Shown: positions 6,867 to 64,000, numbered from the stretch's first letter. The stretch: 64,000 nt of DNA from Mobula hypostoma (GCF_963921235.1 NC_086097.1:161450001-161514000), one strand, 5' to 3'. Translations and numbers: made by a program. Notes: generated by a model not told the origin, from the sequence alone.

Positions 6867-9800
6867 TCTATATACTACTAAAATTCTCATGCTCTGTTTG
6901 TCTGTGACCTCCAATTAGCCCAAACGGGTCATTACAGTGGCACTTTTTTTTCACTAAATGGACTTAAAATGCGCTAACTTACAGAATGCATGCAAAGGTC
7001 AGGGTTATATTCATATAAAATTGCTCACTCATCAACACCTGATTCCATCTTTCATGGAAACCGCGACACGACACCACGACACATGCGCATGGCCAGCCTC
7101 AGCAGCGCCTCATGATGCTCACAGCAGCGTCACCAATCGCAGCAGAAGGGCAGGGCAGCTCTATTCCAAGTGGTCACATTCTGCTAATCACCATCAGCAT
7201 GTGCAGGATTGGGACAGATCAAACTGTGACCATCAATAAGAGGTAATTACCGTAAATTCAGGTGTATAAGCCGACCCCTTTTGTAGAGGTTTTTGATTTA
7301 ACCAGAAAAGATCACAAGATCTCACATGCCGGTACTCAGCTTTGCTGAATCCAGAACCTGGAAATTTTGTGAACCAGTACCTGCTAAGAAAATAGGCCTA
7401 CACATTATAGAGCATTATAAGCAAATTCTTAATAAATAAATCAGGGAGGGAAGTTTTGGATTAGGTTCCCAATGGTAAAGAATCCTCTGAAATGTAACCT
7501 CCGTGAAACCATTTAACGCCCATCGTAATCTCATTAAAACATAACATGGGGTGGCGGGATCAGTACGTGTACTGTTTGAGTTTGCGACCACCATGTACAA
7601 AAGATTAAAACGAATGCAATATGATGCTGGCTTCAAGCCGAAAAATTCAAGAAGGAAAAGTTGCTACTTGTCTGGGACATGTTCAAAGCGCACTTGTCAG
7701 GTGAGACAAAAGCAGCATTGAAAGCTGAAAATATGGACATTGCAGTCATCCCTGGTGGTTTGACATCCGTGCTCCAGCCACTAGATGTGAGTTTAAACAA
7801 ACCATTCCAAGAATTCATGCGTTGACAGTGGACAGTTTGATGACAACAGTGTGTACAAGTAAATTGAGAAACAGAATGTGTTTTGTAGATCTTTTGTGTA
7901 GATTTCATAAGCATTTGTATTTTCTTTTGTATTTGACTCAAAAACAACCAGTAAATACGACCTGTCTTCCGTGTATTCGTTTTTTCCAAAGTTGACACCT
8001 TCTGTATAAGTCGACTCCCTAATTTTAGGACCAAAATTTAGGGCCAAATTCTCAGCTTATACACCGGAATTTACGGTAAATCTTATTGTAATAAAGTTCT
8101 TCGAAACACCCATCAAACCTTTTGCTGCAGTCAAAGGACAGCAGTGACTATATCACATCCACTTAGGAGAGCGCCAACCACATCATCAAGAGAAATCAGC
8201 ATCCTGGAGGCTTTGGTGTTACTGCTTCGTATCTTCTATCCAGTATTAAGGTAAAAAAAATATGGTCAGCCGAATTGAGAGGCATCGTGGACGAGCTCTT
8301 CTGTATTTCCAAGAGAAACTGGAGAACTTGGGCAAAACACTTGAAGAATATAACTTGCCGACACCAAGAAACGGTACAATTACTCAAAGTGCTGACAATC
8401 TGGAATTATTGCATGAACTGCAATACAACAGAGACGAACAGCAGGAATTTGTTTCACAGAAGGAGCCCCTATTGAATAATGAGCAAAGAGAAATATATGA
8501 ATATGTGTGCCACTGCTTGGAACGGAATCTCTCTTCAATAATTTTCATTGATGCACCAGGAGGAACGGGCAAGGCATTTATTATCATCAACATGATGCTT
8601 GCTAAAGTTAGGGGAGATGGAGGTGTTGCTATTGCTGTAGCATCATCCAGTATTGCATAAACATTGATGCCTGGTGGTAGGACAGTGCACTCAAGATTCA
8701 AGATACCTCTCAATGTCAATGAAGATGGCCTTTGTAATATCGATTTAAAAACACCACTGCTGCAAATTTACTCCGAAATGCAAGGCTTATTGTCTGGGAT
8801 GAGTGCCCCATGATTAGGAGGGAGAGCTTCAAAGCTGTGGACCGAACTCTTCGTGATGTATGTGGCAAGAATGAAGCCTTCAGGGGTATTTTAACCATTT
8901 GCTGTGGCAATTTCCGTCAGCTTCTAGCAGTTGTGAAACGAGGAAATTATGCTGATGTGGAGAATTCATGCATAAAAAAGATCCTACTTATGGAGAAGCT
9001 TCATCAAGTTTCAATTGAAGAGAAACATGCGATTGAGTGAGGGAGAAGGACAATATTCTGAATTCTTATTGGATGTTGGAGAAGACAAGATTGAGAACAA
9101 TGAAAACGATGAAATCAAATTACCTGAAGGTGTGATTGTGCCAGCAGAAACTATGGAAGAATGTGTTGATTTCATCTACCCAATATTCGATAATCCTGCA
9201 GAACTGCTCTCGAGGAATTCTATCTTGGTTCCTCTCAATGAAATGATGTGAAAAATAAACTTCACATGCATTAGATGCTTCCCTGGAATTATGAAAGAAT
9301 ACTGTTCCTTCAATACCGTAGGTGAAGGATCTAACACCACTTATTTTCCAACTTAGTCCTTAAACTTCTGGAGAACAGTGCAGAGAGAACAGGTGCTGTT
9401 TTCTCTCGGTAGGGATTAGTTTTTAGTTCCAAGTGCTCCTGCCACGTTTTGTCTCCCTGCAACCTTATCCTTCAATCTCTTTGTATTATAGAGGACAGCA
9501 TGTGTATAAATGTCTCTCTCCAGCAGACTTCATCATTACTCCAGTATTTCTACTATTTTTTAATGTTTCTTGATTGTACATATGATTTTTTTTGTGTTCT
9601 ATCGCTGAGCCACAGTGAACCATCTGTTTGGCCTATCAGAGTTCTCTTTGAGAACTAGTTGAAATAATCAGCATTTCTGATCTGGCTATTGTTCACGATT
9701 GCACTTAATTTAAAAAAAAAATAAATTCCTTGATTCGGTCGAACTCTCTGGATTGCCAACACATAAACTGGAATTGAAGAGGGGATCTCCCGTCATTTCA

Positions 9801-10375
9801 GTGAGGAACTTGGATCCACCAATGCTTTACAGTGGAACACAAATGATGGTGGAAGAACTGCACGACAATCTCATCATAGTAAAGATAAACATTGGTGCGT
9901 TCAAAAATGACATTGTCATGATCCCAAGAATTACTCTTAGTTTATCAGAAGGGGAGGATGTCCCTCTTCAGCGGAGCCAGTTCCCGATACAGTCATGCTT
10001 TGCTATGACTATACATAAGGCACAAGGCCAAACCATGGAGAATGTGTTGACTTATCTGGAGAAACTGGTATTCCAGCATGATCAGCTATATGTCGCTTTA
10101 AGCCGGGGAAAAAGAAATGAAAACCTTAGAGTATTCTTGAAGGGTGGCAGATCAACCAGAAATGTTGTCATCAAAAGTGTCCTTTGTTAAACGAGGAAGA
10201 GCTTATTTGTCTTGCTACGCGTCTTTCTTCTGTAATAAACTGAGTTTTTCTTCTTTAATTTCCAAAGCAAAGCGATAGCAATAGCATTCAGGGAAACTTA
10301 ATGTTCATTCTGCTCACATCAGACTGCACTACCTTTCTCTGAAAGGGTGCCCCAACGGGTCACCCAGTTGTCTAG
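6867..10375 (+). mobile_element. Helitron (rolling-circle transposon), internally deleted, both termini intact, PIF1-family helicase pseudogene
   Basis: 5' A|TCTATATACTACTAAAA at 6867; 3' hairpin GGGTGCCCC-AAC-GGGTCACCC (10345-10365) then CTAG|T (10372-10375); A|T target with no TSD. Helicase motifs DAPGGTGK, IVWDECPM, GNFRQL, FAMTIHKAQGQT and QLYVALSRG in fragments 8262-10190. Confidence 0.92.
7250..8076 (+). mobile_element. Non-autonomous pogo-family (Tc1/mariner superfamily) DNA transposon nested in the Helitron
   Basis: ~25-bp TIRs CCGTAAATTC(A/C)GGTGTATAAGC(C/T)GA with TA TSD at 7248-7249 and 8077-8078. ACCACCATG start at 7593 (MYKRLKRMQYDAGFK) is joined out of frame to a DDE remnant LLVWDMFKAH...IPGGLTSVLQPLDVSLNKPF. 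Confidence 0.92.
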
Positions 10376-25760: not shown

Positions 25761-25820
25761 GTATACTACCATAATCTGCACTAAGTTGCTTTGGCATTTC
25801 TGCTTCCAATTTCTCCCTAG

Positions 25821-26911
25821 GTCTTGGTGGAGCTATTGGCTATATGCTTGGTGGTTTAGATTGGACACAAACCGCTTTGGGCCAGATCTTCAAATCACAA
25901 CAGCAAGTCCTCTTCTTCTTCGCTGCCATCATCTTTTCTGGGTCTGTTGCTTTGCATCTTTTCAGCATTGAAGAGGAGCAGTATAACCCCCAACAAGACC
26001 GTATTGATGAAGAAACAGATGCACGGGCTACGATTAGTGTGAATGATAGTCTCCCACCCCTCCCTCGGCTTGACCTGCCTTATGAAGAAGGACCTTGCAC
26101 TACTGCAGTCTTCCCTGATGAAACTTGCTCAGTACAAGATGGTAATCTCAACTTCCTGGATGTAAATATTGGACGGAGCCAAAGTGACTCTGTTTTGCAC
26201 ATGCCTGACGCAACTATAGAAATTGAATCAGAGTTATTTTTTTTGAGAGACATTGAACCTTCTGTTTTCCAGGACCATTGTGATAGCCTGCATCAATCTT
26301 CAACAAGCTTATCCAAAAGTAACAACCAGGAAATTACATTAAAGCTCAATCACATCTCTGGTTTGCTCAGGGAGCATGAATTTGAAGATGTTTTGAAAGA
26401 CGATCTTACAACATCCAAAGTGGCAAATGGGCCATCTGATGACTGCACTAATGATCATATTAACCATAATACCTTCAGGATTGGGATGAAACCATCAACA
26501 ACCAGCAGTTCCATGCGTAGGCGTAGGCATGTATTCTACAGGCAACCATCTCACACCTTTTCGTATTATGGCAAGGTGGGTTCACATCGTTACCGCTTTC
26601 GTCGTGCAAATGCCATTGTCCTGATCAAGTCTTCACGCAGCATGAATGACCTTTACGATCTGCAGAAAAAACAAAGGCAGCGTCAGAGACATAGGAACCA
26701 GAGTGGTGTGACCAATTCAAGCAGTGATACCGAAAGTGAGGAAGGAGAGTCGGAGACAACTGTTAAGCTTCTGTGGTTATCTATGCTGAAGATGCCAAAA
26801 GAGCTGATGAGACTCTGTGTATGTCACCTGGTAACTTGGTTTGCTGTGATTGGAGCTGCTGTATTCTATACAGACTTCATGGGGCAAGTTATCTATAGAG
26901 GTAACCCAAAA
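25821..26911 (+). CDS. SLC45A4: SLC45A4 large coding exon (1091 bp; TM segments plus long cytoplasmic loop)
   Basis: CTCCCTAG|GT...CCAAAA|GTAAGT. Open frame GLGGAIGYMLGGLDWTQT...LLWLSMLKMPKELMRLCVCHLVTWF...FYTDFMGQVIYRGNPK. Confidence 0.97.
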
Positions 26912-27579
26912 GTAAGTTTGTAAATTTAGCTCTTTTTCTTTTACAGTATTATTTATATTCTGCTGTGTTTAGTACCAAGCCACAAATCCTGTTTCCATGA
27001 AGAATCAGCTTTTGAAAGCACCTCACATTAACTGCTTCTATTTGTAGTCTTCAAATGTACTGTAAGGAGAGTAATTATACTTGGACCACCCTTGATAAAA
27101 CACCACATTTGTCTAGAATTTTAGCTTCAAGTGTAACAAAATATAGGTTACACTCTTTTCCTTCCATTTTCATGACTGGTGGATACTGTAAATCAAATAA
27201 ACTTCTGTCAGTTTAAAAATCGTGACACTTGGCATAAAATTCACATTGCTGAAAAACAGTGTATGTTATCAAGGGAAGATTAGGATTAAGAGCTGAGAAT
27301 CCTAGCAGTCTTGATATTAAAAGAAATTTCCTTTCTTTATGTTATTATTTAATTATAATTGTTATAATTATATAATCATTGAAACTCAGTGATTACAAAA
27401 TGGAAGGTGGCCTTCAGAGCCATAACACCAATACCAGCTCAAGCAGTAATAAACCTGCAGATTATTTCCATTTAGATGCTTATCCAGTGCTCTTCCTAGT
27501 CTACAGTTGAATTCCAGGTACTGTGATTCCTGGCACTGCATTCCGCACTTAAATGTGACATGAACAAATATGTTCTTAA

Positions 27580-33718: not shown

Positions 33719-34078
33719 TATAGAAATCACAGTCCTGGAAACTCCAAGAGGGGCTTTGGAATAGACTGTGCAATCCTCTCCTGTCAAGTTTATATTTCCC
33801 AGATACTGGCAGCATCAGCACTGGGTAGTGTGGTGAAAGCAGTTGGTTCAGTTCGAGTCATCCCTGTTGTGGCATCCATTGGTTCATTCCTTGGCTTTCT
33901 ATCTGCCTCATTTCTCGTGATATATCCTGGAAGTCAAGAAGACCCAGTAGAGGAAGGAAATAAAGAAACTTTAATGGCATCTTCAGTAAACAGTGGGAGA
34001 AGTACAGAGAAGCCGATTGTTTTGAAGTTGACTAGTAAAGGCACCATCTCTGAAGTGGAGATTGAATCGTCTGTTTAA
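33719..34078 (+). CDS. SLC45A4: SLC45A4 last coding exon
   Basis: TTTTACAG|TAT. Encodes YRNHSPGNSKRGFGIDCAILSCQVYISQIL...EKPIVLKLT...IESSV, stop TAA 34076-34078. Confidence 0.97.
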   Translation, partial: YRNHSPGNSKRGFGIDCAILSCQVYISQILAASALGSVVKAVGSVRVIPVVASIGSFLGFLSASFLVIYPGSQEDPVEEGNKETLMASSVNSGRSTEKPIVLKLTSKGTISEVEIESSV

Positions 34079-38304: not shown

Positions 38305-40164
38305 TGCAAATGTGTAGAATAGGATGACCTGTGTTTTGATTAAAATGAAGATATAACACTGCAGATGCTGGAACCTAGAGCAAAAAAAAAGTTGCTGGTA
38401 TGGTCTGCGGCTGTGGAGGAAAATAAGCAGTGGATATTTCAGGTCAAGGCCCTTCGCTGGCCTGAAAGGATGAAGAAAAGATGGTCAATATATAAAGGTG
38501 AGGGGAAGGGATGGGACAAAAGACAGCCAGAATGTGGAGATGAGCAGAGGGAAGAGTAGGACAAGGGACAAGGGATAGAGGCTGGGTGGTGATGAATGGA
38601 GGCAACAGGGAATCGGATAAGGATTTCCTAGATAAAGGAACATCCCAAATGTCCTGGAGTGGAAGATATCCTTTAGAGAACAAGCACTGCAAAGATAGAG
38701 AAAATGAAAGAAATGAATGGTGTCCTTAAAGGAGATGCTGGGAGTTGGGTTTGCAATAATTCTTTTTTGATAGGTGTCAGTGCTAATTAAGGTTTTTAAA
38801 ATTATCCATGGGTCTGGTGAACATTGAAGTGCTTCTAAAGTCTCCAACTCCTTCGTGGCAAAGGGACAAAACTGGTCTTAAAATCTAATCAATCAAATTC
38901 TTGCAAAAGAACATTATAGTGCACTTCCTTGCATCCATATGGATTCCTGCAATATTATTTAGGTTCCCATGTTAAAGAAAATTGGAGCTCTCTGCAGTAT
39001 CCTTGTTAACATTTACCTCTCCAAACAACCTGCTTCACTATAATATTGAAAATTAGCTGCAGTATTTCCTAACTTCATGTACAAAATAAATTTTGAAGAA
39101 CCATGGTTGTGAAAGGGTTCAAAGTACTTTCAAGTAGTTTGCAGTCATTCATCAGACAGAAGAAAAGATTTTGGAAGAAGGGACAAACTACAGTATATTG
39201 CATTGCTGGAAAGAGCCACACAGTCTCAGTGAATTCTACTGAAATGTGGGGGTGGAAGAGATAAACTATCAATAAAATTCATCAGAAACTATTATTCTTG
39301 TTTGATAAGTTAGTATCAGGACCACAATGGTAATTGCATAGCAGAAATAAAACAATTGCATAACTAGAAATAACATGGTGGATGATGTGCTAGGTGGTGG
39401 GGGCCATTTGAGACCAATAGTCGATCAGAATCCTTTTAGTAACTGGTCTTCAAGTTCTAAACTGCGGGAAGGCAAATTTCATCACTGAATCAAGGCTGAA
39501 AGAAAATTATAGCTGGAAATTTAACGTCCAAACATGCACATTCTGTTGAAAGCACGGGCAGAAGCTGGTTGCTGTTGGTAAAAAATGAAATGAACTCATT
39601 AGTAAAAGCTGACATAGGGCCATAAGGTGTTGAATCATTGTGGATAGAGCTAAGGAACTGCAAGGGTAAAAAGACCTTGATGGAAGTTGTAAAGACACCC
39701 CTGAACAGTAGTAAGGATGTGGTCTACGAATTACAATGTGAGATATAAAATGCATTTCAAAAGGGCAATGTTACAAGTCATACGGGATTTCAATATGCAG
39801 ATAGATTCCAGGAAGGGCAATTCCTAGAGTGGGTATAAGATGGATTTTTAGAGCAGCTCATGGTTGAGCCCACGAGGGGACCAGCTATTCTGGAATGGGT
39901 GTTGTGCACTGAACCACAATTGATTAGAGAGCTTAAGATAAAAGAACCCTCAGGGATGTGATCATAATATGATCAAATTCACCTTGAAATTTAAGAAGGA
40001 GAAGCTAAAGTCAGTATTACAGTGGAGTAAAGGGAATTACAGATACTTAAGAGAAGATTTTAAACTCAAACAACAGGAATTCTGCAGATGCTGGAAATTC
40101 AAGCAACATACATCAAAGTTGCAGGTGAACGCAGCAGGCCAAGCAGCATCTATAGGAAGAGGCG

Positions 40165-40202
40165 CAGTCGACGTTTCAGGCCGAGACCCTTCGTCAGGAC
40201 TA
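40165..40202 (-). ncRNA. Minimal type I hammerhead ribozyme motif (left arm)
   Basis: Reverse complement reads TAGTC-CTGACGA-AGG GTCTCGG CCT-GAAAC-GTC-GACTG: intact CUGANGA and GAAA core, helices I and II, palindromic ACGT helix III. Confidence 0.85.
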
Positions 40203-42193
40203 ACTGAAGGAAGAGTGAGTAAGGGATTTGAAAGCTGGAGGGGGAGGGGGAGATGCAAAATGATAGGAGAAGACAGGAGGGGGAGGGATAGAGCCGAGAG
40301 CTGGACAGGTGATAGGCAAAAGGGGATACGAGAGGATCATGGGACAGGAGGCCTAGGGAGAAAGATGGGGGGGGGTGACCCAGAGGATGGGCAAGAGGTA
40401 TATTTAGAGGGACAGGGAGAAAAAGGAGAGTGAGAGAAAGAATGTGTGCATAAAAATGAGTAACAGCTGGGGTACGAGGGGGAGGTGGGGCCTAGCGGAA
40501 GTTAGAGAAGTCAATGTTCATGCCATCAGGTTGGAGGCTACCCAGACGGAATATAAGGTGTTGTTCCTCCAACCTGAGTGTGGCTTCATCTTTACAGTAG
40601 AGGAGGCCGTGGATAGACATGTCAGAATGGGAATGGGATGTGGAATTAAAATGTGTGGCCACTGGGAGATCCTGCTTTCTCTGGCGGACAGAGCGTAGAT
40701 GTTCAGCAAAGCGGTCTCCCAGTCTGCGTCGGGTCTCACCAATATATAAAAGGCCACATCGGGAGCACCGGACGCAGTATATCACCCCAGTCGACTCACA
40801 GGTGAAGTGATGCCTCACCTGGAAGGACTGTTTGGGGCCCTGAATGGTGGTAAGGGAGGAAGTGTAAGGGCATGTGTAGCACTTGTTCCGCTTACACGGA
40901 TAAGTGCCAGGAGGGAGATCAGTGGGGAGGGATGGGGGGGACGAATGGACAAGGGAGTTGTGTAGGGAGCGATCCCTGCGGAATGCAGAGAGAGGGGGGA
41001 GGGAAAGATGTGCTTAGTGGTGGGATCCCGTTGGAGGTGGCGGAAGTTACGGAGAATAATATGTTGGACCCGGAGGCTGGTGGGGTGGTAGGTGAGGACC
41101 AGGGAACGCTATTCCTAGTGGGGTGGTGGGAGGATGGAGTGAGAGCAGATGTACGTGAAATGGGGGAGATGCGTTTAAGAGCAGAGTTGATAGTGGTCCA
41201 CTATCAACTCTGCTCTTAAACGCATCTCCTCCATTTCACGTACATCTGCTCTCACTCCATCCTCCCACCACCCCACTAGGAATAGGGTTCCCCTGGTCCT
41301 CACCTACCACCCCACCAGCCTCCGGGTCCAACATATTATTCTCCGTAACTTCCGCCACCTCCAACGGGATCCCACCACTAAGCACATCTTTCCCTCCCCC
41401 CTCTCTCTGCATTCCGCAGGGATCGCTCCCTACACAACTCCCTTGTCCATTCGTCCCCCCCATCCCTCCCCACTGATCTCCCTCCTGGCACTTATCCGTG
41501 TAAGCGGAACAAGTGCTACACATGCCCTTACACTTCCTCCCTTACCACCATTCAGGGCCCCAAACAGTCCTTCCAGGTGAGGCATCACTTCACCTGTGAG
41601 TCGACTGGGGTGATATACTGCGTCCGGTGCTCCCGATGTGGCCTTTTATATATTGGTGAGACCCGACGCAGACTGGGAGACCGCTTTGCTGAACATCTAC
41701 GCTCTGTCCGCCAGAGAAAGCAGGATCTCCCAGTGGCCACACATTTTAATTCCACATCCCATTCCCATTCTGACATGTCTATCCACGGCCTCCTCTACTG
41801 TAAAGATGAAGCCACACTCAGGTTGGAGGAACAACACCTTATATTCCGTCTGGGTAGCCTCCAACCTGATGGCATGAACATTGACTTCTCTAACTTCCGC
41901 TAGGCCCCACCTCCCCCTCGTACCCCAGCTGTTACTCATTTTTATGCATACATTCTTTCTCTCACTCTCCTTTTTCTCCCTGTCCCTCTAAATATACCTC
42001 TTGCCCATCCTCTGGGTCACCCCCCCCCCGTCTTTCTCCCTAGGCCTCCTGTCCCATGATCCTCTCGTATCCCCTTTTGCCTATCACCTGTCCAGCTCTC
42101 GGCTCTATCCCTCCCCCTCCTGTCTTCTCCTATCATTTTGCATCTCCCCCTCCCCCTCCAGCTTTCAAATCCCTTACTCACTCTTCCTTCAGT

Positions 42194-42231
42194 TAGTCCT
42201 GACGAAGGGTCTCGGCCTGAAACGTCGACTG
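42194..42231 (+). ncRNA. Minimal type I hammerhead ribozyme motif (right arm)
   Basis: TAGTC / CTGACGA (42199-42205) / AGG..CCT helix II / GAAAC (42219-42223) / GTC triplet with predicted cut after 42226 / GACTG pairing with TAGTC. Confidence 0.87.
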
Positions 42232-43129
42232 CGCCTCTTCCTATAGATGCTGCTTGGCCTGCTGCGTTCACCAGCAACTTTGATGTATGTTACTTAAGAG
42301 AAGAGTTGGCCAAAATTGATTGGAAAAGAACAGGGATGACACAGAGCAGCAATGGCTTCTAAATGGAGGGAAAATGCCAATAATGGAAGCGCAATGGGAC
42401 TTCGGAGCCCTTGTGCAGGGCTCCCTAAAGGTTAATTTACAGGTCAAGTCTGTGGTGAGGAAGGCAAATGCAATGTTAGCATTCATTTGAAGAGGACCAG
42501 AATATAAAAACGAAGATGTAACGTTGAGACTTTATAAAGCAGTGGTGAGGCCCTACTTGGAGTATTGTGAGCAGTTTTAGGACCCTTATCTTAGAAAGGA
42601 TATGCTAAAACTGGTAAGGGTTCAAAGGAGGTTCACGAAAATGATTCCAGGAGTAAACAGTTCGTCATATGAAGAGTGTTCCATGGCTCCGGGCCTGTAT
42701 TCACTGGAATTCAGAAGAATGAGGGGTGACCTCATTGAAACGAATTGAATGGTGAAAGGCCTTGATAGAGTGGACGTGGAGACGATGTTTCCTAAGGTAG
42801 GGGAATCTAAGACCAGAGGATGCAGCCTCAGAATAGAGATGAGGAAAAGTTTCTTTAGCCAGAGAGTAGTGAACCTGCAGAATTCTTTACCACAGGCAGG
42901 TGTAGAGGCCAAGTCTTTATGCCTATTTAAGGCAGAGGTTGATAGATCCTTGATTGGTCAGGACATGAAGGGACAGGAGAAGAAGACAGGAGATTAGGGC
43001 TAAGAGGAAAATTGAATAGCCATAATAAAATAGCAGAGCAGACTCAATGGGCCAAATGGCCTAATTCTGCTCCTATATCTTATGGTCTTGCAGTTCCTTG
43101 TGCAAGTGACATTCCTCACTTGCAAATCT

Positions 43130-45552: not shown

Positions 45553-46143
45553 GAAGAGAAAGCAGGATCTCCCAGTTACCACACATTTTAGTTTCATGTC
45601 CCATTCCCATTCTGATATGTCTATCCACGGCCTCCTCTACTGTAAAGATGAAGCCACACTCAGGTTGGAGGAACAACACCTTATATTCTGACTGGGTAGC
45701 CTCCAACCTGATGGCATGAATATTGATTTCTCAAACTTCCACTAATGCCCCACCTCCCCCTCGTACCCCATCCGTTATTTATTTATATACACACATTCTT
45801 TTTCTTTTTTTCTCTCTCTCTCTCCTTTTTCTCCCTCTGTCCCTCTCACTGTACCCCTTGCCCATCCTCTGGGGTTCCCCCCCTCTTCCTTTTCTTTCTC
45901 CCTAGGCCTCCTGTCCCATGATCTTCTCATATCCCTTTTGCCAATCACCTGTCCAGCTCTTGGCTCCATCCCTCCCCCACCTGTCTTCTCCTATCATTTT
46001 GGATCTCCCCCTCCCCGACCTACTTTCAAATCTCTTACTAGCTCTTCCTTCAGTTAGTCCTGACAAGGGCTCTCGGCCCGAAACATCCACTGTACCTCTT
46101 CCTAGAGATGCTGCCTGGCCTGCTGTGTTCACCAGCAACTTTT
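45553..46143 (+). mobile_element. 5'-truncated Penelope-like copy with degenerate hammerhead
   Basis: Colinear with 41712-42280; the hammerhead region 46055-46092 is mutated (CTGACAAGGG...GAAACATCCACTG). Confidence 0.9.
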
Positions 46144-50080: not shown

Positions 50081-50275
50081 CTATTCTACTTTCCAAATAG
50101 CAATCTTCCCATCTTCCCTGCCGGCTCCACTCAGAACATATCTGTTTTCAGCAGAGCACAATGCTCGAACCATGTCCACGTGAGCCACCAGTTCTTTCTC
50201 CACACAGTATTTGTCTGCATCTATCACATATATTTTCCCTTTGACTTTGTCCAATCCTTTGCTTCCAATCCAGAT
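50081..50275 (-). CDS. DENND3: DENND3 last coding exon (WD40 C-terminus), absent from the ORF track
   Basis: Minus strand TTTCAG|ATC...TAG, 65 codons: [64 protein letters not shown]. Matches the DENND3 C-terminus as I recall it. Confidence 0.93.
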
Positions 50276-51270: not shown

Positions 51271-51377
51271 GTTATTTCAGAAAACCCATAGTATTTACAA
51301 ATTGCCAAGCATATGCTGCTTGCTGAATTTAAGGGTAAATGAATTCACCCTAGCAAATCAATTTAATCAAAAGGTTT

Positions 51378-51591
51378 TAAAACGCAAACGACAGGAATTC
51401 TGCAGATGCTGGAAATTCAAGCAACACACATCAAAGTTGCTGGTGAACGCAGCAGGCCAGGCAGCATCTCTAGGAAGAGGTACAGTTGACGTTTCAGGCC
51501 GAGACCCTTCTCTCGGCCTGAAATATCGACTGTACCTCTTCCTAGAGATGCTGCCTGGCCCACTGTGTTCACCAGCAACTTTGATGTGTGT
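51378..51591. mobile_element. Mini fold-back Penelope-like insertion (81-bp arms, 6-nt loop)
   Basis: Arms 51424-51504 and 51511-51591 with an extra tail on the left; TSD AATCAAAAGGTTT at 51365-51377 and 51598-51610 (extends to ~20 bp with 2 mismatches). Confidence 0.92.
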
Positions 51592-51978
51592 CAGTTGAAT
51601 CAAAAGGTTTAGTTACTTTGCTGATACAAACGACTCATTGGGAGACTCTGCTAAAATCACGTCAACCAGCTGAGAAAAAAAACAGCACCAATATGACGTA
51701 GAAGATATTTACAATATATGGAGTTACTTACTAGCAAGACATAGAGGATTTCAGACCAAGTGCTGATAAATGGGATTAGTATATGTGGGAAAATAACAGT
51801 AAGTGAGGAAAGTGAGCCAGAGGGCCTGTTGCTGGGCTGAACGATTCTAGGATTATAAGAAGTTGAAGAACAGTGCTGTGATTGTTAATGCGAACCTGTT
51901 CATCACCTCCTTAGAGAATAAAGCTTTATACTGTACATTTGAATTAGTAAATATTTGACATTTAAGCCATGATATTAC

Positions 51979-54465: not shown

Positions 54466-55583
54466 TCACAAACAGAAGAAAATCTGCACGATTGAAATCC
54501 AAGCAACACACTCAAAATGCTGAGGGAACTCAGCAGGCCAGGCAGCATCTATGGAAAAGAGTCAACAATCGATGTTTCAGGCCCAGACCCTTCATCAGGA
54601 CTGGAAAGGAGGAGGAGAAGTCAGAGTAAGGAGGAGGGCAGGGGAGGAAGAAGTAAAAGATGGTAGGAGATAGGTGGAACCAAGAGAGAGGGAAGGGTGA
54701 AGTAAAGAGTGGGAAGTTGATTGGTGAAAGAGATAAAGGGCTGGAGAAGGGGGGAATGTGATAGGTGAGAACAGCAGACCATGGAAGAAAGGGAAGGAGA
54801 AAGAACATCAGAGGGAGGTGATGGGCAGGTAAGGATATGAGGTGAGAGAAGGGAACAGAAATAGGGAATGCTGAAGGAAGGAGGGTGGGACAATTACCAG
54901 AAGTTAGAGAAACCACTGTCCATGCCATCAAGTTGGAGGCCACCCAGATGGAATACAAGGTAACACACACAAAATGCCAGAGGAACTGAGCAGGTCAGGC
55001 AACATCTACGGAAAAAAGTACAGCCAATATTTTGAGCCGAGACCCTGCAGCAGGTCTGTAGAAAAAAAAGATGAGGAGTAGAACATAAGGTGTTGCTCCT
55101 CCAACCTGAGCATGGCTTCATCATGGCAGTAAAGGAAGCCATTGATTGACATGTCGGAATGGGAATGGGAGGTACTGATGGCATGAACATTGATTTCTCG
55201 AACATCCAGTAACTGCCCCCCTCTTCCTGTTTCCCTCTCTCACCTTACACCTTTACCTGCCCATCACCTCCCTTTGGGGTTCTTCCTCCTTCCCTTTCTT
55301 CCATGGTCTTCTATCTTCTTCCATCAGATTCTCCCCTTCTGCAGCCCTTTATCTCTTTCACCCATCAACTTTCCACTTTACTTCACCCCTTTCCCCTCTC
55401 CCACTTTCACCTATCACCTACCACCTTGTACTTCTTCCACCCCTCCTCCCATCTCCTTACTCTAATTTCTCCTCTTTTTTTCAGTCCTGACAAAGGGTTT
55501 CAGCCCAAAACATCGACTGTTTACTCTTTTCCAGCAATGCTGCCTGGCCTGCTGAGTTCCTCCAGCATTTGCATGTGTTGCTT
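54466..55583. mobile_element. Older fold-back Penelope-like insertion in BEL gag
   Basis: Minus-strand arm ~54466-55170 and plus-strand arm ~55175-55583; 12-bp TSD TGGTGTCTGCTT (54454-54465 and 55584-55595); hammerhead remnants at 54566-54603 (-) and 55482-55519 (+); extra nested pseudo-LTR piece ~54962-55080. Confidence 0.88.
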
Positions 55584-56084: not shown

Positions 56085-56619
56085 GATGCACCTCAGGGGT
56101 GTGTGCTTAGCCCACTGCTCTGCTCTCTATATACCCATGACTGTGTGGCTAGGCATAGCTCAAATCTATAAATTCGCTGATGATACAACCATTGTTGGTA
56201 AAATCTCAGGTGATGAGAGGGTGTACAGGAGTGAGATATGCCAACTAGTGAAGTGGTGTCGCAGCAACAAGCTGGCACTCAACGTCCATTATTAAGGATC
56301 TCCAGCACCCAGAGCATGCCCTTTTCTCACTGTTACCATCAAGTAGGAGATACAGAAGCCTGAAGGCACACACTCAGTGATTCAGGAACAGCTTCTTCCT
56401 CTCTGCTATCCGATTCCTAAATGGACATTGAACCCTTGGACACTACCTGGCTTTTTTTAATGTTTATTATTTTTTGCAGGATTTTAATCTATTCAATATA
56501 CGTATACTGTATAAACTATACTGAATAAGATTTATTCATTTTTTTTAATGTATTGCATTGAACTTCTGCTTTAAGTTAACAAATTTCATGTCACATGCCA
56601 GTGATAACCTGATTCTGAT
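56085..56619 (+). mobile_element. Rex1/Babar fragment nested in BEL
   Basis: APQGCVLSPLLCSLYTHDC, KFADDTTIVG; CCTGATTCTGAT tail; the BEL frame HQRD|LQRWSHL resumes after it. Confidence 0.88.
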
Positions 56620-58157
56620 CTCCAGAGATGGTCTCACCTGAAACATGTACATTTGCCAGAGCTTAATTCAGAAAATGAGCTGCTGATGGGGACAAATGTG
56701 CCTAAAGCACTGGAGCCATTGCAACTGATTCACAGTGTTAATGATAGACTTTATGTGATTAAAACATTGGGCTGGACTGTGAATGAACGACTGAAAGAGG
56801 ACAATGGTGATGGGAGGGACTGTGCACAGCCTGAGCTGACAGGTAACAGGATCTCAATTTTGAACTTGGATAAACTTTGACAGCAGAAGTTCAAGGAAGA
56901 CTTCTTTGAATGTAATCAGGATGAACGACCTGATCTTTCAAGGGAAGGCCACAAGTTCACGGAGCTGGTTGCGGATCCTGCAAAACTGGTCGATGGCCAT
57001 TACTAGGTCAGTTTGCCTTTGAGAAAGAAGAGGATTAGCATGACAAACAACAGGAAGATTGTAGAACAATGTGCACTAAATCTAAGGAAAAGGTTTAAAA
57101 GAAGAATTTGTCATTTCTTATTGACAAAACAGCTTTCATGATGGATGTCATCCCCAAAGGTTACGCAAAAAGCGTGCCAGCAGAAGATCTGGAATGCAGT
57201 GATGGGGAAAGTCTGGTATATTCCACATCATGGTGTAGAGCACCCTAGAAAAGGGAAACTTTCTGTTGTGTTTGACTGTGGAGCAACTTTTCAAGATATA
57301 TCTTATACAAGGACCAGACCTTACTAACTCACTGACTGCAGTCATAACCAGGCTCAGAAAAGAACCAGTGGTGATCATGGCAGGTACTGAATCAATATTT
57401 CAACAGGTTAAAGTACCAGCAGAAGATGCAGATCTGCTGAGGTTTCTCTGGTGACCTGTTAGTGACCTCAGCTTTGGAGCAACTTAATCACTGAGCTGTG
57501 CCAAATCCGCTCTTAAGAAATGCGCAGAAGATAATACAGAATAGTTCAGCTGCGAGATGGTGGAAAAGGTTTTGCATTGCTTCTATGTTGACAACTGCCT
57601 TGTGTCAGCATCTTTGGAGGAAGAAGCGGTGTCTCTCTATCATGACCTTGTATCCGTTTGTTCTAAAGACGGCCTTCAACTCTCAAAGTGGATAAACAAC
57701 AGACATAGTGTACTAGCTGTGATAACAGAAGAGCAAAGAGTGAAAGACATGAAGGATTTGGATTAGAATCAAGATATACCTTCAGTGGAGTGATACTGGA
57801 TGTGTAATACTGTGTTCAGTTTAATATTTTCTGGAGTTAATCCAACCTAAACCACTCACCAGAAGGGGATCTTCTCCACAGTTTGTTCTATCTATGATCC
57901 TTCTGGGATCTTGAGTCCACTGGTACTATTTGCTAAGATGATCATACAAGATCTAGGTAAGAAAGATCTTGGCTGGGATGAAATTATACCAATGTCAGTT
58001 GCTTATGAGTGGACAAGCCAGCTGCAAGAACTCTGGCAGCTGGAAGGCTTCAAGCTTGTTAAATGTTGGAAGCTCCTGGATTTTGGACAAGTTGCTGCTG
58101 CACAGTTCTACTACTTTATAGATGAAAGCAAAGATAGCTATGGAGCCGTGACCTACC

Positions 58158-58574
58158 TGTAAGGGGGTTTCGACTTTTATGTTGCTGCGGAGGCTAATTA
58201 AAATGGCCTCTTTGTTATGTTAATCTGGGGAATGCAGCTTTGTTGTGTTAAACACTGGGAAAGTTTGCGCTAGCAGCTTGTTTTTGTTTAGAGTGTGATA
58301 AGAGGTTGCTTTTAACCAATTGGGATAGTTGTTATGGTTTTGGTGTATTTGAAGATACTGTATGCGCGGGGTTTTGGGGCAGAAGGCGGGAGAGCGAGAC
58401 AGAGGATGGAGGAGGTGCTGTGATGTCTGCTAACGGGGTCGGACCCCGAGGAGGGCAGAGTGGGGTACCTCACACAGCATCCACACAAACTAATTACCCA
58501 GTTTTGCGGGACCGAAGCTGTTTCCCTAGACGACAGCGAGCCAAGCAACTCTGAGAGTGGCCGGGGGGGCTACA
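58158..58574. mobile_element. Solo LTR (417 bp) nested in BEL RNase H
   Basis: TGTA...TACA termini and 4-bp TSD TACC (58154-58157 and 58575-58578); removal restores GAVTY-LRLHN. Confidence 0.85.
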
Positions 58575-58940
58575 TACCTAAGGTTGCACAACACCTGCTC
58601 TCAGGAGCATAATGCATTTATCATGGGAAAATCTAGGGTAGCTTCATAGAAGTCAGTTTCCATCCTTCATATGGAGTTCACTGTTGCTACAATGGCAAGC
58701 CATAGGGACACATTGTGGAAGAAGGAGTTGCACATGCAGCTTCATGGCTCAGTTTTTTGGACTGACAGTACTTCTGTGCTGAAATACATCAAGAATGAAA
58801 CCTCCAGGTTCCCAACCTTTTTTGCAAACAGAGTTTAGAATTCTTAAGGTCTCACAGGCATCACAATTGAGGTATGTAAACACTAGGACCTCAGTATCTT
58901 CTTCAGACTGAAAGGGAATGGCTTGTGAATCATAATTGTT

Positions 58941-61657
58941 TTAAGACCATAAGACAAAGGAGCAGAAGTCGGCCATTCGGCCTATCGCGTCTGCTCCGCC
59001 ATTTTATCATGAGCTGATCCACTCTCCCATTTAGTCCCACTCCCCCGCCTTCTCACCATAACCTTTGATGCCCTGGCTACTCAGATACCTATCAATCTCT
59101 GCCTTAAATACACCCAATGACTTGGCCTCCACTGCCACCCGTGGCAACAAATTCCATAGATTCACCACCCTCTGACTAAAAAAATTTCTTCACATTTCTG
59201 TTCTGAATGGGCGACCTTCAATCCTTAAGTCATGCCCTCTCGTACTAGACTCCCCCATCATGGGAAACAACTTTGCCACATCCACTCTGTCCATGCCTTT
59301 TAACATTCGAAATGTTTCTATGAGGTCTCCCCTCATTCCTCTAAACTCCAAGGATAACAGTCCAAGAGCGGACAAACGTTCCTCATATGTTAACCCTCTC
59401 ATTCCTGGAATCATTCTAGTAAATCTTCTCTGTACCCTCTCCAACGTCAGCACATCCTTTCTTAAATAAGGAGACCAAAACTGCCCACCGTACTCCAAGT
59501 GAGGTCTCACCAGCGCCTTATAGAGCCTCAACATCACATCCCTGCTCCTGCATCCCTATTCCTCGAGAAATGAATGCCAACATTGCATTCGCCTTCTTCA
59601 CTACCGACTCAATCTGGAGGTTAACCTTAAGGGTATCCTGTATGAGGGCTCCCAAGTCCCGTTGCATCTCAGAACTTTGAATTCTTTCCTCATTTAAATA
59701 ATAGTCTGCCCGTTTATTACTTCTGCCAAAGTGCATAACCATACACTTTCCAACATTGTACTTCATTTGCCACTTCTCTGCCCATTCTCCCAATCTATCC
59801 AAGTCTCTCTGCAGACTCTCCCTTTCCTCAGCACTACCGGCCCCTCCACCTATCTTTGTATCGTCAGCAAACTTAGCCACAAAGCCATCTATTCCATAAT
59901 CCAAATCGTTGATGCACAATGTAAAAAGATGCGGACCCAACACAGACCCCTGTGGAACACCACTGGTAACTGGCAGTCAACCAGAATAGGATCCCTTTAT
60001 TCCCACTCTCTGTTTCCTGCCAATCAGCCAACGCTCTATCCATGTATGTAACTTTCCCATAATTCCATGGGCTCTTATCTTGTTAAGTAGCCTCATGTGT
60101 GGCACCTTGTCAAAGGCCTTCTGAAAATCCAAATATACAACATCCACTGCATCTCCCTTGTCTAGCCTACTGGTAATTTCCTCAAAAAATTGTAATAGGT
60201 TTGTCAGGCAGTATTTTCCTTTAAGGAACCCATGCTGAGTTCTGCCTATCTTGTCATATGCCTCCAGGTACTCTGTAACCTCATCCTTGACAATCAACTC
60301 CAACAACTTCCCAACCACCGACGTCAAGCTAACAGGTCTATAATTTCATTTTTGCTTCCTTGCCCCCTTCTTAAATAGCGGAGTGACATTTGCAATCTTC
60401 CAGTCCACTGGAACCATGCCGGAATCTATCGACTTTTGAAAGATCATCGCTAATGCCTCCGCAATCTCCACAGCTACTTCCTTCAGTACACGTGGGTGCA
60501 TTCCATCTGGTCCAGGAGATTTATCTATCTTTAGACTATTCAGCTTCCTGAGTACTTTCTCTGTTGTAATTGTGACTGCACACACTTCTCTTCCCTGCCA
60601 CCCTTGAGTGTCGGGTATATTGCTGATGTCTTCCTCAGTGAAGACTGATGCAAAATACTCGTTCAGTTCCTCTGCCATCTCCTTATCTCCCATTACAATT
60701 TCGCCAGCATCATTTTCTATCGGTCCTATATCTACTCTCACCTGTCTTTTACTCTTTATATACTTGAAAAAGCTTTTAGTATCCTCTTTGATATTATTTG
60801 CTAGCTTCCTTTCATAGTTAATCTTTTCCCTTTTAATGACCTGCTTAGTTTCCTTTTGTAAGGTTTTAAAAACTTCCCAATCCTCTATCTTCCCACTAAT
60901 TTTTGCTTCCTTGTATGCCCTCTCCTTTGCTTTAATTTTGGCTTTGACTTCTCTTGTCAACCACGGTTGTATCCTTCTTCCATTCGAAAATTTCTTCTTT
61001 TTTGGAATATATCTGTCTTGCACCTTCCTCACTTCTCGCATAAACTCCAGCCACTGCTGCTCTGCTGTCTTTCCCGCCAGTGTCCCTTTCCAGTCAACTT
61101 TGGCCAGTTCCTCTCTCATGCCACTGTAATTTCCTTTACTCCACTGAATTACCGACACATCAGATTTCGGCTTCCACAGTGAACTCAATCATGTTATGAT
61201 CACTGCCTCCTAAGGGTTCCTTCACCTCAATCTCTCTAATCACCTCCGGTTCATTACACAATACCCAATCCAGTACAGCCGATCCCCTAGTGGGCTCAAC
61301 AAGCTTTTCTAAAAAGCCATCTCGCAGACATTCTACAAATTCTCTTTCTTGAGATCCAGTGCCGACCTGATTTTCCCAATCTACTCGCATGTTAAAATCC
61401 CCCACAATTATCATAACACTGCCCTTCTGACAAGCCTTTTGTATTTCCTGTTGTAATTTGTAGTCCACATCCCTGCAGCTGTTTGGAGGCCTATAAACAA
61501 CTGCCATCAGGGTCCTTTTACCCCTACAATTTCTTAGCTCAACCCATAAAGATTCTGCAGCTTCCAATCCTATGTCACCTCTTTCTAATGATTTAATATC
61601 ATTTCTTACCAATAAAGCCACGCCTCCCCCTCTGCCTACCTTCCTATCCTTCCGATA
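58941..61657 (-). mobile_element. Young 5'-truncated CR1 LINE ORF2 nested in BEL
   Basis: AVVYRPP, VGDFN, SDHN, KSPGPDG, YLDFQKAFDKVPH, KFADDTK; 3' tail at ~58941. Confidence 0.95.
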
Positions 61658-62499
61658 GGAAGAACTTGGAGAACTTCTGCTAGATGATGGAAGTCAAGAG
61701 AAGTGTTACAATGAATGCTGTGTAGGCTTGAAAGGAGATGGACATGGTAACACATATAATCTATCACTTCTCGTCTTGGACCCATTTGAGGAAGACAGTG
61801 CCCTGGATGCTGAGATTTAAGAACCTGCTTGTTTCTTAGTCAGAAGAGGAAGCAATTGAACATTGCACTTGCTCAGTACGACCTAAATGAAGAGATGAAA
61901 GAATACAAGAGTAGTCATTGGACAGAGAGATTGAAAAGGCCAAATGTCAGATTTGCTAAGGTTGTCCTTCAGTGCAACAGCTCAAATGAGAGGCTACAAT
62001 GGAGATCATCCGTTTATGCCAAAGAAGGTGATTTCCAGATGAATTCTCAAGTTTGCAAGGGGAAGAAACTGAGAAAAGGAACGGTCATATTTTTAAGCTC
62101 AATCCAGTACAAAGATGGTGGCTTGAGAGCTGGTAGACGGTTTAGTAAGGCAGCCATGCCTGAAGAATGTAAACATCCTGTTATACTGGCAAAGGATCTC
62201 CATATCTCAGACATCATTGTGAGGCATGAACATCATGAGGTGGGACATGGTTCCGCCAAAAGTACTGGATTCCTGGTGCTAATACAGCTATAAGAAAAGC
62301 CCTGTTGAAGTGTTCTTTGTTAATGCATTTTGAGGCAAGACAAGGACAGGTTCGTGAACTGCGGTCTGATCATGTGACAAGCTTTGTTGGAGCTGAGCAC
62401 GAGCTGAGAGAAGCCATTGAGAAATGGAACCATCCACGAATCAATGATGTTCTGTACTTAATCCGGAGACGGACAAAGAGTCTATAGAAGTGAGGCAAA

Positions 62500-64000
62500 G
62501 CAGCATCAACTTCATGGACTCTATACCGATTACAGAGGAAGGAATTGTTTGCTGTCCTGAGGCAAATTAGAGTGGATAAATCCCCAGGGGTGACAAGGTG
62601 TTCCCTCAGACCCTGCAGGAGGCAAGTGCAAAAATTTCTGGGGCCCTAACAGAGATATTTAAATCATTCTTAGCGACAGGTGAAGAACCAGAGGATTGAT
62701 GGATAGCAAATGTTTTACAGGCCAGTGAACCTGACATCAGTGATGGGAAAGTTATTGGAAGGTATTCTAAGGGACTGGATATATGAGTATTTAGATAGAC
62801 ATGGACTGATTAAGAATAGTCAGCATGGCTTCATGTGTGATAGGTCATGTCCAACCAATCTTTTAGAGTTTTTCGAGAAAGTTGCCAGGAAAGTTGATGA
62901 AGGCAAGGCAATGGATGTAATCTATATGTACTTTAGCAAGGCATTTGACAAGGTCCAGCATGGGAGGTTGGTTAAGAAGGTTCAGTCGCTCAGCATTCAA
63001 GATGAAGTAGGAAATTAGACTACACTTTGGCTTTGTGGGAGAAGTCAGAGAGTGGTAGTAGATGGTTGCCTCTCTGAATGGAGGCATGACTAGTGGAGTG
63101 CTGCAGGGAACAATGCTGGATCCATTGTTGTTTGTCATCTATATAAACGATCTGTATAATAATGTTATTAACTGGATCAGCAACTTTGTGGATGACACCA
63201 GGATTGGGGATATATTGGACAGCAAAAAGGGTTATCATGGCATGCAGCAGGATATGGACTAGCTGGAAAAATGGCAGATGGAATTTAATACAGACAAATG
63301 TGAGGTGTTCCACTTTGATAGAGCCAACCAGGGTAGGGCTTATACAGTACAGTACGGCACTGAAGAGTGCAGTAGAACAAAGGATCTGGGAATTCAGGTC
63401 CATAATTTATTGCAAGTGGCATTACAAGTAGAGAGAGTCATAAGGAAAGCTTTTAGCACAGTGGCCTTCATAAATCAAGGTACTGAGTACAGAAGATGGG
63501 ATGTTATGTTGAAGTTGTACAAGGCATTGCTGAGGCCTAATTTGGAGTATTGTGTGCAGTTTTGATTACCTATTTGCAGGAAAGATGAAAATAAGGTTGA
63601 AAGAGTACAAAAAAAAATTGTAAGGATGTTGCCGGTAGTGGCAGACCTGAGTTATAAGGAAAGATTGAATAGGTTAGGACTTTATTCCTTAGAATGTAGA
63701 GGACTGAGGGAAGATTTGAAAGAGGTATACAAAATTATGAAGGGTATAGATAAGATAAACGCAAGCAGGCTTTTTCCACTGAGGTTGGGTGGGACTACAA
63801 CTAGAGGTGAAAGAGGAAAAGTTTAAGGGGAACATGAGGGGAAACCTCTTCACTCAAAGGATCATGAGAGTGTGGTACAAACTGCCAGTGCAAGAGATGC
63901 ATGCGAGTTCAATTTCAATGTATAAGAAAAGTCTGGATAGGTCCATGGATGGTAGAGTTATGCAAGGCTATGGTCTCGCTGCAGATCAATGGGAGTAGAC
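62500..64000 (+). mobile_element. Decayed CR1 ORF2 RT fragment running to the window end
   Basis: YRPVNLTSVMGKLLE, FSKAFDKV, FVDDTRI, LLRPNLEYCVQF. Confidence 0.9.

Follow-up and report, generated by a model that had tools for sequence, protein, structure and literature searches.

The 64,000-nucleotide stretch of the Mobula hypostoma genome analysed here (GCF_963921235.1, NC_086097.1:161450001-161514000; hereafter the window) carries parts of two convergent genes, with a palindromic Penelope-like element (PLE) insertion between them. The gene on the + strand was named SLC45A4 from one exon (25775-26920; E 1.7e-124), while its apparent stop codon, in a last exon deduced from the open reading frame (ORF), is located at 34078, 6.0 kb from the insertion. 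The last exon of DENND3, which is 100% identical to Mobula proteins, is found on the - strand, with its stop codon (50081-50083) 7.8 kb from the insertion. The Pfam search gave neither of these flanking exons a name. An earlier note on this DNA, which placed the palindrome between the 3' ends of two convergent genes, was right about the gene orientations; what separates the palindrome from either stop codon is a distance of kilobases. Because eight AATAAA words intervene between the SLC45A4 stop codon and the insertion, and six between DENND3 and the insertion, the latter probably lies outside both mRNAs. The window also contains ORF pieces with a GGTGKAF motif (8250-10190), which we take to be PIF1-type helicase-like and possibly a decayed Helitron, and further ORF pieces (56600-62500), interrupted by a CR1 copy at about 58940-61700, that are presumably BEL/Pao-type LTR retrotransposon-like.

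The palindrome and its insertion footprint

The inserted unit is bounded by a 14-bp target site duplication (TSD; family D14) of CR1 sequence, with copies at 40044-40057 and 42291-42304 (+ strand) that are identical at 14/14 positions and part at base 15. Between these lie a 48-nt tail (40058-40105, - strand), the left, tail-bearing arm (40106-41196, - strand; 1091 nt), a single T at 41197 (+ strand), and the right, tail-less arm (41198-42290, + strand; 1093 nt), with both arms comprising the same 5'-truncated 3' part of a PLE. Alignment of the arms revealed seven differences in 1093 columns (99.4% identity), consisting of five substitutions and two single-base indels, and with a BLAST E-value of 0 the match between them is not due to chance. 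The centre reads GATAGTGG-T-CCACTATC, and the innermost 32 bp of the stem pair without mismatch. Both arms and the single TSD around the whole unit had been described in the earlier note at these positions and are confirmed. That note started the unit at 40058 and made no comment on the tail, which has no partner in the right arm; its claim that the arms are truncated at exactly the same base is not upheld, as the T at 41197 matches the templated family base of the right arm, which thus reaches 1 nt further than the left, and the truncations lie one base apart.

When the insertion and one repeat are removed, the resulting empty site aligns without an indel to a second CR1 copy in the window. 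As the flanks are thus colinear with CR1 across the empty site, the palindrome represents one insertion event, as had been proposed from the TSD. The host is a CR1-type LINE remnant on the + strand, with its upstream part (39575-40057) sharing 68% identity with CR1 sequence at 61124-61612, and its internally deleted downstream part (42305-43089) sharing 70% identity with 58943-59665. The claim that removal restores the CR1 frame holds locally, with a single reading frame running through the junction, but this CR1 is dead: there are stops on both sides of the insertion, and beyond about 42345 a large part of its interior is deleted. The palindrome is very probably a genuine, single PLE insertion, and a young one, given that its TSD copies are still identical at all 14 positions.

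The central 121 nt form a complete DNA hairpin in the folding prediction (-72 kcal/mol), a value which reflects capacity only, and both cruciform and dsRNA formation by the palindrome, as suggested earlier, are plausible. A microRNA precursor was considered and rejected, with all 22 Rfam matches falling below the gathering score and the strong ones stemming from the perfect hairpin.

Element identity and family copies

Each arm incorporates the end of a reverse transcriptase (RT) region, a C-X4-C-X2-C linker, a GIY-YIG endonuclease and a 3' UTR/pLTR. The linker, which reads C-KRNK-C-YT-C in both arms, and the endonuclease share an open frame at 41382-41903 (+ strand; mirrored at 40492-41013 on the - strand). 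The GIY-YIG domain was matched to Pfam family PF01541 (E 6.3e-05; 23.6 bits against a cut-off of 22.6), and CCHH residues can be distinguished in the translation, with two cysteines between the VIY and YIG motifs and two histidines downstream. The best protein matches to this frame are from Mobula hypostoma (P0001; 93% identity) and Hypanus sabinus. While the RT core is missing from the truncated copy, RT-type sequence occurs upstream in the homologs P0001, P0010 and P0014, the last of which has an RVT_1 match. The Pfam match and the ray PLE homologs bear out the Penelope-like identity that had been recognised in the earlier note and, judged from its predicted domains, the element is an endonuclease-bearing PLE. 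The clade definitions given in PMC8557442 describe a C-terminal GIY-YIG endonuclease with CCHH residues and a CX2-5CxxC linker that marks Neptune/Nematis, and since its predicted cysteine linker and C-terminal endonuclease fit these definitions, the ray element is assigned to the Neptune/Nematis type. The Penelope/Poseidon clade was ruled out by the presence of the cysteine linker, and the Naiad/Chlamys elements, with their N-terminal endonuclease, by the C-terminal position of the endonuclease, which is followed by a stop and the 3' UTR.

A minimal hammerhead-like motif was read by eye at 42194-42231 (+ strand; mirrored at about 40165-40202 on the - strand), consisting of a CUGACGA core, a 3-bp stem II, GAAAC-GUC and a 5-bp stem I, with no stem III loop. 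It has no Rfam hammerhead match and is not adopted in the MFE folds. A minimal hammerhead without helix III is described in PMC6155905, and the candidate motif here is of that shape. The palindromic copy is dead on arrival, with no host function and no ability to move by itself. Pieces of the PLE ORF are also contained in the ray gene models P0004, P0012 and P0016, named DIPK1C, CHID1 and ABHD14A, and represent either annotation artefacts or exonisation.

Contigs of the family were mapped on one arm only (39750-41240) for four of the 24 listed runs; X21 yielded no records, and X1, X5 and X9 gave 235,988, 198,065 and 13,372, respectively, most of them from family copies, with the X1 and X5 counts showing the family to be very abundant. 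None of the 24 pieces and 15 joints listed, out of sets with 301,931 and 690 more, covers the palindrome centre or junctions. A 21-nt family motif had no matches in metagenome contigs. The variable-site table, from which two flank rows were dropped first, lists 38 sites inside the element, with 49 further rows outside this count, and at 37 of the 38 listed sites both arms carry the same letter, in agreement with the earlier proposal that they derive from one source lineage. Seven of the 37 shared letters are the minority letter in run X1. Among the listed sites no shared letter is private to the locus, the highest share of the other letter in X1 being 0.81, and the shared letters thus point to one subfamily, not to one RNA molecule.

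As had also been noted before, the ORF changes frame in both arms at a run of six C residues (41396-41401, + strand; mirrored as G6 at 40994-40999). Of the six ray proteins compared, two are one residue shorter at this site, another drops out of frame here and two carry the long form; in the sixth, motif search did not locate the site. A longer run occurs in at least 72 X1 and at least 75 X5 contigs, and such contig indel counts are undercounts, with a deletion found only in the left arm (41101) being present in <2% of X1 depth. Because the site is an indel hotspot in other ray copies, the shared frameshift is weak evidence for a common origin of the arms. The seven differences between the arms comprise three that are derived in the left arm, two derived in the right arm and two that are ambiguous, a distribution to be expected if they arose by later mutation or as consensus errors, and some are located at homopolymers or close to the centre. 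The inner 100 bp hold three of the seven (41102-41164; p 0.02, or 0.10 if two neighbours are counted as one event), which reflects either hairpin-linked mutation or consensus error.

Two further back-to-back units are present in the window. A short unit of the same family (51359-51609) consists of a tail arm (51376-51510, - strand) and a tail-less arm (51511-51591, + strand) within an 18-bp TSD with two mismatches. It carries the same 48-nt tail and a 6-nt spacer that belongs to the tail arm, and its tail-less arm ends at the base equivalent to 42290. This unit turns inside the hammerhead-like stem II and sits in a DENND3 intron. The second unit (54469-55583) is older and more complex, with a 12-bp TSD and a tail-less end 5 nt further than 42290, and is ordered as a tail arm, an extra tandem antisense piece, filler and a tail-less arm. 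A single truncated copy (45555-46142; 87% identical) has no inverted partner and no evident TSD.

Formation of the two arms

The description of typical PLE insertions in Arkhipova et al. 2013 (PMC3846280) includes adjacent inverted pLTRs, a 31-bp tail at one end and a TSD around the unit, and the corresponding section of Craig et al. 2021 (PMC8557442) applies the same inverted scheme to all PLE clades, while calling the mechanism still undefined. The ray palindrome is similar to Pen2a_Av and Pen2 of Adineta vaga, as portrayed in PMC3846280, where an inverted 5'-truncated copy adjoins the 5' end in a head-to-head arrangement, and shares with them the one-sided tail, the TSD around the unit and the junction palindrome (scheme in PMC8557442, Fig. 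2). However, the ray copies are truncated within 1 nt of each other, which renders the whole 2.2 kb palindromic, whereas the rotifer junction palindromes given in PMC3846280 are 18 and 38 bp. The tail is 48 nt in the ray unit, against 30-40 bp in the published descriptions consulted. With Poseidon_Ac (PAc) of Anolis carolinensis, according to the results on this element in Frangieh et al. 2024 (PMC11167929), the ray element has in common an AT-rich target and a tail delimited by two favoured 3' termini, and the hammerhead motif close to the 3' end of PAc has a candidate counterpart in the ray. PAc belongs to the Penelope/Poseidon clade and is without the cysteine linker that the ray element has, and is described there as initiating without target homology, whereas the ray unit has a 7-nt, wobble-tolerant match.

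This match comprises the target bases at 42291-42297, all seven of which are pairable, wobble included, with the start of the tail, while at 51592-51601, on the right-hand TSD of the short unit, 9/10 target bases resemble the tail start. Both were noticed post hoc, and may reflect primer annealing or an endonuclease preference. In L1 twin priming, both nicked target strands prime cDNA and an inversion results inside one TSD. The L1 inversions involve non-overlapping parts of one RNA, unlike the ray palindrome, where the same 1.09 kb is present twice, and no paper applying twin priming to PLEs was found in the literature search.

The earlier note attributed the second arm to hairpin self-priming on the first cDNA, as opposed to a second RNA. 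This choice is incomplete, since two primers on one broken RNA would also give equal truncation and shared mutations. The reading favoured here, to which we give about an even chance, is that the arms were made as two target-primed cDNAs, both halted by a single RNA break and subsequently joined end to end. The endonuclease would nick both target strands 14 bp apart. The top-strand 3' end would prime at a distal start site, so that the tail is copied as well, and the bottom-strand 3' end would use a proximal start site, 48 nt further in. Synthesis of both cDNAs would run out at a shared 5' break, in either a single RNA or two sibling RNAs, leaving their ends 1 nt out of step. One cDNA end would next jump onto the 3' end of the other or be ligated to it, and with each cDNA then serving as template for the other, the outcome would be a palindrome with no spacer within one TSD, the seven arm differences representing later mutations or consensus errors.

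The centre of the palindrome is what favours this end-to-end joining. The tail-arm cDNA is the top strand and ends in ...GATAGTGG, where family contigs go on with AGGAAGGG. Loose ends behind 41196 start with A on the + strand in X1 (61 records, agreement 0.99) as well as in X5 (34 records, agreement 0.96), and P0001, which reads FPSSTINSAL, agrees with this continuation. The one-base spacer described in the earlier note is present as the T at 41197, but this T is the base that family copies have next in the template of the right arm, not of the tail arm, and belongs to the tail-less arm. Furthermore, as the continuation past 41196 is an A followed by a purine run with no self-complementarity, the tail-arm cDNA would have no stem to prime on. 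Together these two features favour end-to-end joining, which needs no untemplated base at the centre, over fold-back. The tail-less ends, which fall on the same base at 42290 and 51591 and 5 nt further at 55583, are as expected of a start site. In the experiments reported in PMC11167929 the anole PLE protein, a predicted dimer, nicks and extends both target strands, and reverse transcription begins at two internal positions in the RNA, one at each border of the tail. For the R2 RT, jumps from one template to a separate one have been demonstrated (PMC8857657).

Several points weaken the joining reading. The argument from the centre concerns one base, and an untemplated addition would match in about one in four cases; two cDNAs that end within 1 nt of each other require a pre-broken RNA; the 6-nt spacer of the 51376-51591 unit sits on the tail arm, where fold-back would place it; and no listed contig confirms the palindrome locus. 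In the anole study no start-site difference was seen between the strands, and that paper, which deals with a PLE of another clade, leaves inverted copies aside (PMC11167929). The literature search found no demonstration of template jumping by a PLE RT, and no publication on PLE palindromes in rays or on the end-to-end joining of two PLE cDNAs.

In the fold-back alternative, which appears rather unlikely, a cDNA primed at the tail end would add a few untemplated bases, snap back and copy itself, with the copy being cut or joined 48 nt before it reaches the start. This would account for equal arms and shared mutations without a pre-broken RNA, near-zero spacers would be natural to it, and self-priming was proposed in 2013 on the basis of the palindromes at inverted rotifer PLE junctions, as discussed in PMC3846280. 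The copy at 51376-51591, with its spacer on the tail arm, also fits. Because a tail-less cDNA could not serve as template for the tail, fold-back must start from the tail-bearing arm, and since that arm is the template the centre bases should be derived from it; the centre base instead matches the tail-less arm, and no stem is available in the purine-rich continuation of the tail arm. In a hairpin loop 4-5 nt stay unpaired (PMC8053094), so that priming in cis needs several untemplated self-complementary bases, at least three of which would have to match the palindrome. The first seven TSD bases could seal the end of the copy by pairing with the first seven tail bases (five Watson-Crick and two wobble pairs), but such microhomology, noticed post hoc and equalled at 172 of 127,972 window positions, suits target priming just as well. 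Fold-back also requires an extra step for the near-fixed tail-less end, which coincides with the RT start-site pattern reported for the anole element in PMC11167929. Hairpin self-priming is thus not established as the origin of the second arm.

It is very unlikely that template switching, or gene conversion between the arms, later perfected an initial palindrome with a short spacer or more unequal arms. In yeast, long inverted repeats break and recombine readily (PMC8053094), and the arm identity of 99.4% would suit such a process, but the intact TSD indicates a young insertion and the arm differences are not depleted near the centre, where three of the seven are found. Transcription through a palindromic master copy, which was then copied whole to this site, is a highly improbable origin: a single step would then explain both the equal truncation and the shared mutations, and PLEs can move complex units in trans (PMC3846280), but a perfect 1.1-kb RNA hairpin would be a poor template and no second copy of the centre occurs among the contigs listed. 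Perfect hairpins disturb long-read consensus, and the uncovered centre and junctions among the contigs listed, together with the arm differences at homopolymers or near the centre, could point to an assembly or fold-back read artefact, which is nevertheless the least credible explanation, as the mirror stops exactly at the known internal end of the element, beyond which come an exact TSD and the CR1 continuation, a fold-back read would also mirror the tail and flank, each arm has its own derived letters, and the same design recurs at 51376 and 54469.

Biological implications of the palindrome

As a dead PLE insertion, the palindrome follows the back-to-back form already published, its one unusual feature being the lack of a spacer. 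On how PLEs make inverted copies, junctions of this kind discriminate between the fold-back and two-primer models, although one junction cannot settle the matter. End-to-end joining also allows for a more specific reading, which we hold tentatively, in which the zero-spacer centre is a snapshot of a dimeric enzyme that, using two start sites, primes both nicked strands on one RNA and links the completed cDNA ends through a homology-free template jump. If this were true, counting the ownership of the centre bases across the very numerous young pairs of ray genomes would reveal the mechanism. Furthermore, spacer-less palindromes with long arms raise rearrangement rates more than 10,000-fold in yeast assays (PMC8053094), and a palindrome with 1.1-kb arms and no spacer is of the kind that does so. 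If ray genomes carry many such palindromes, their survival would become a question of genome stability.
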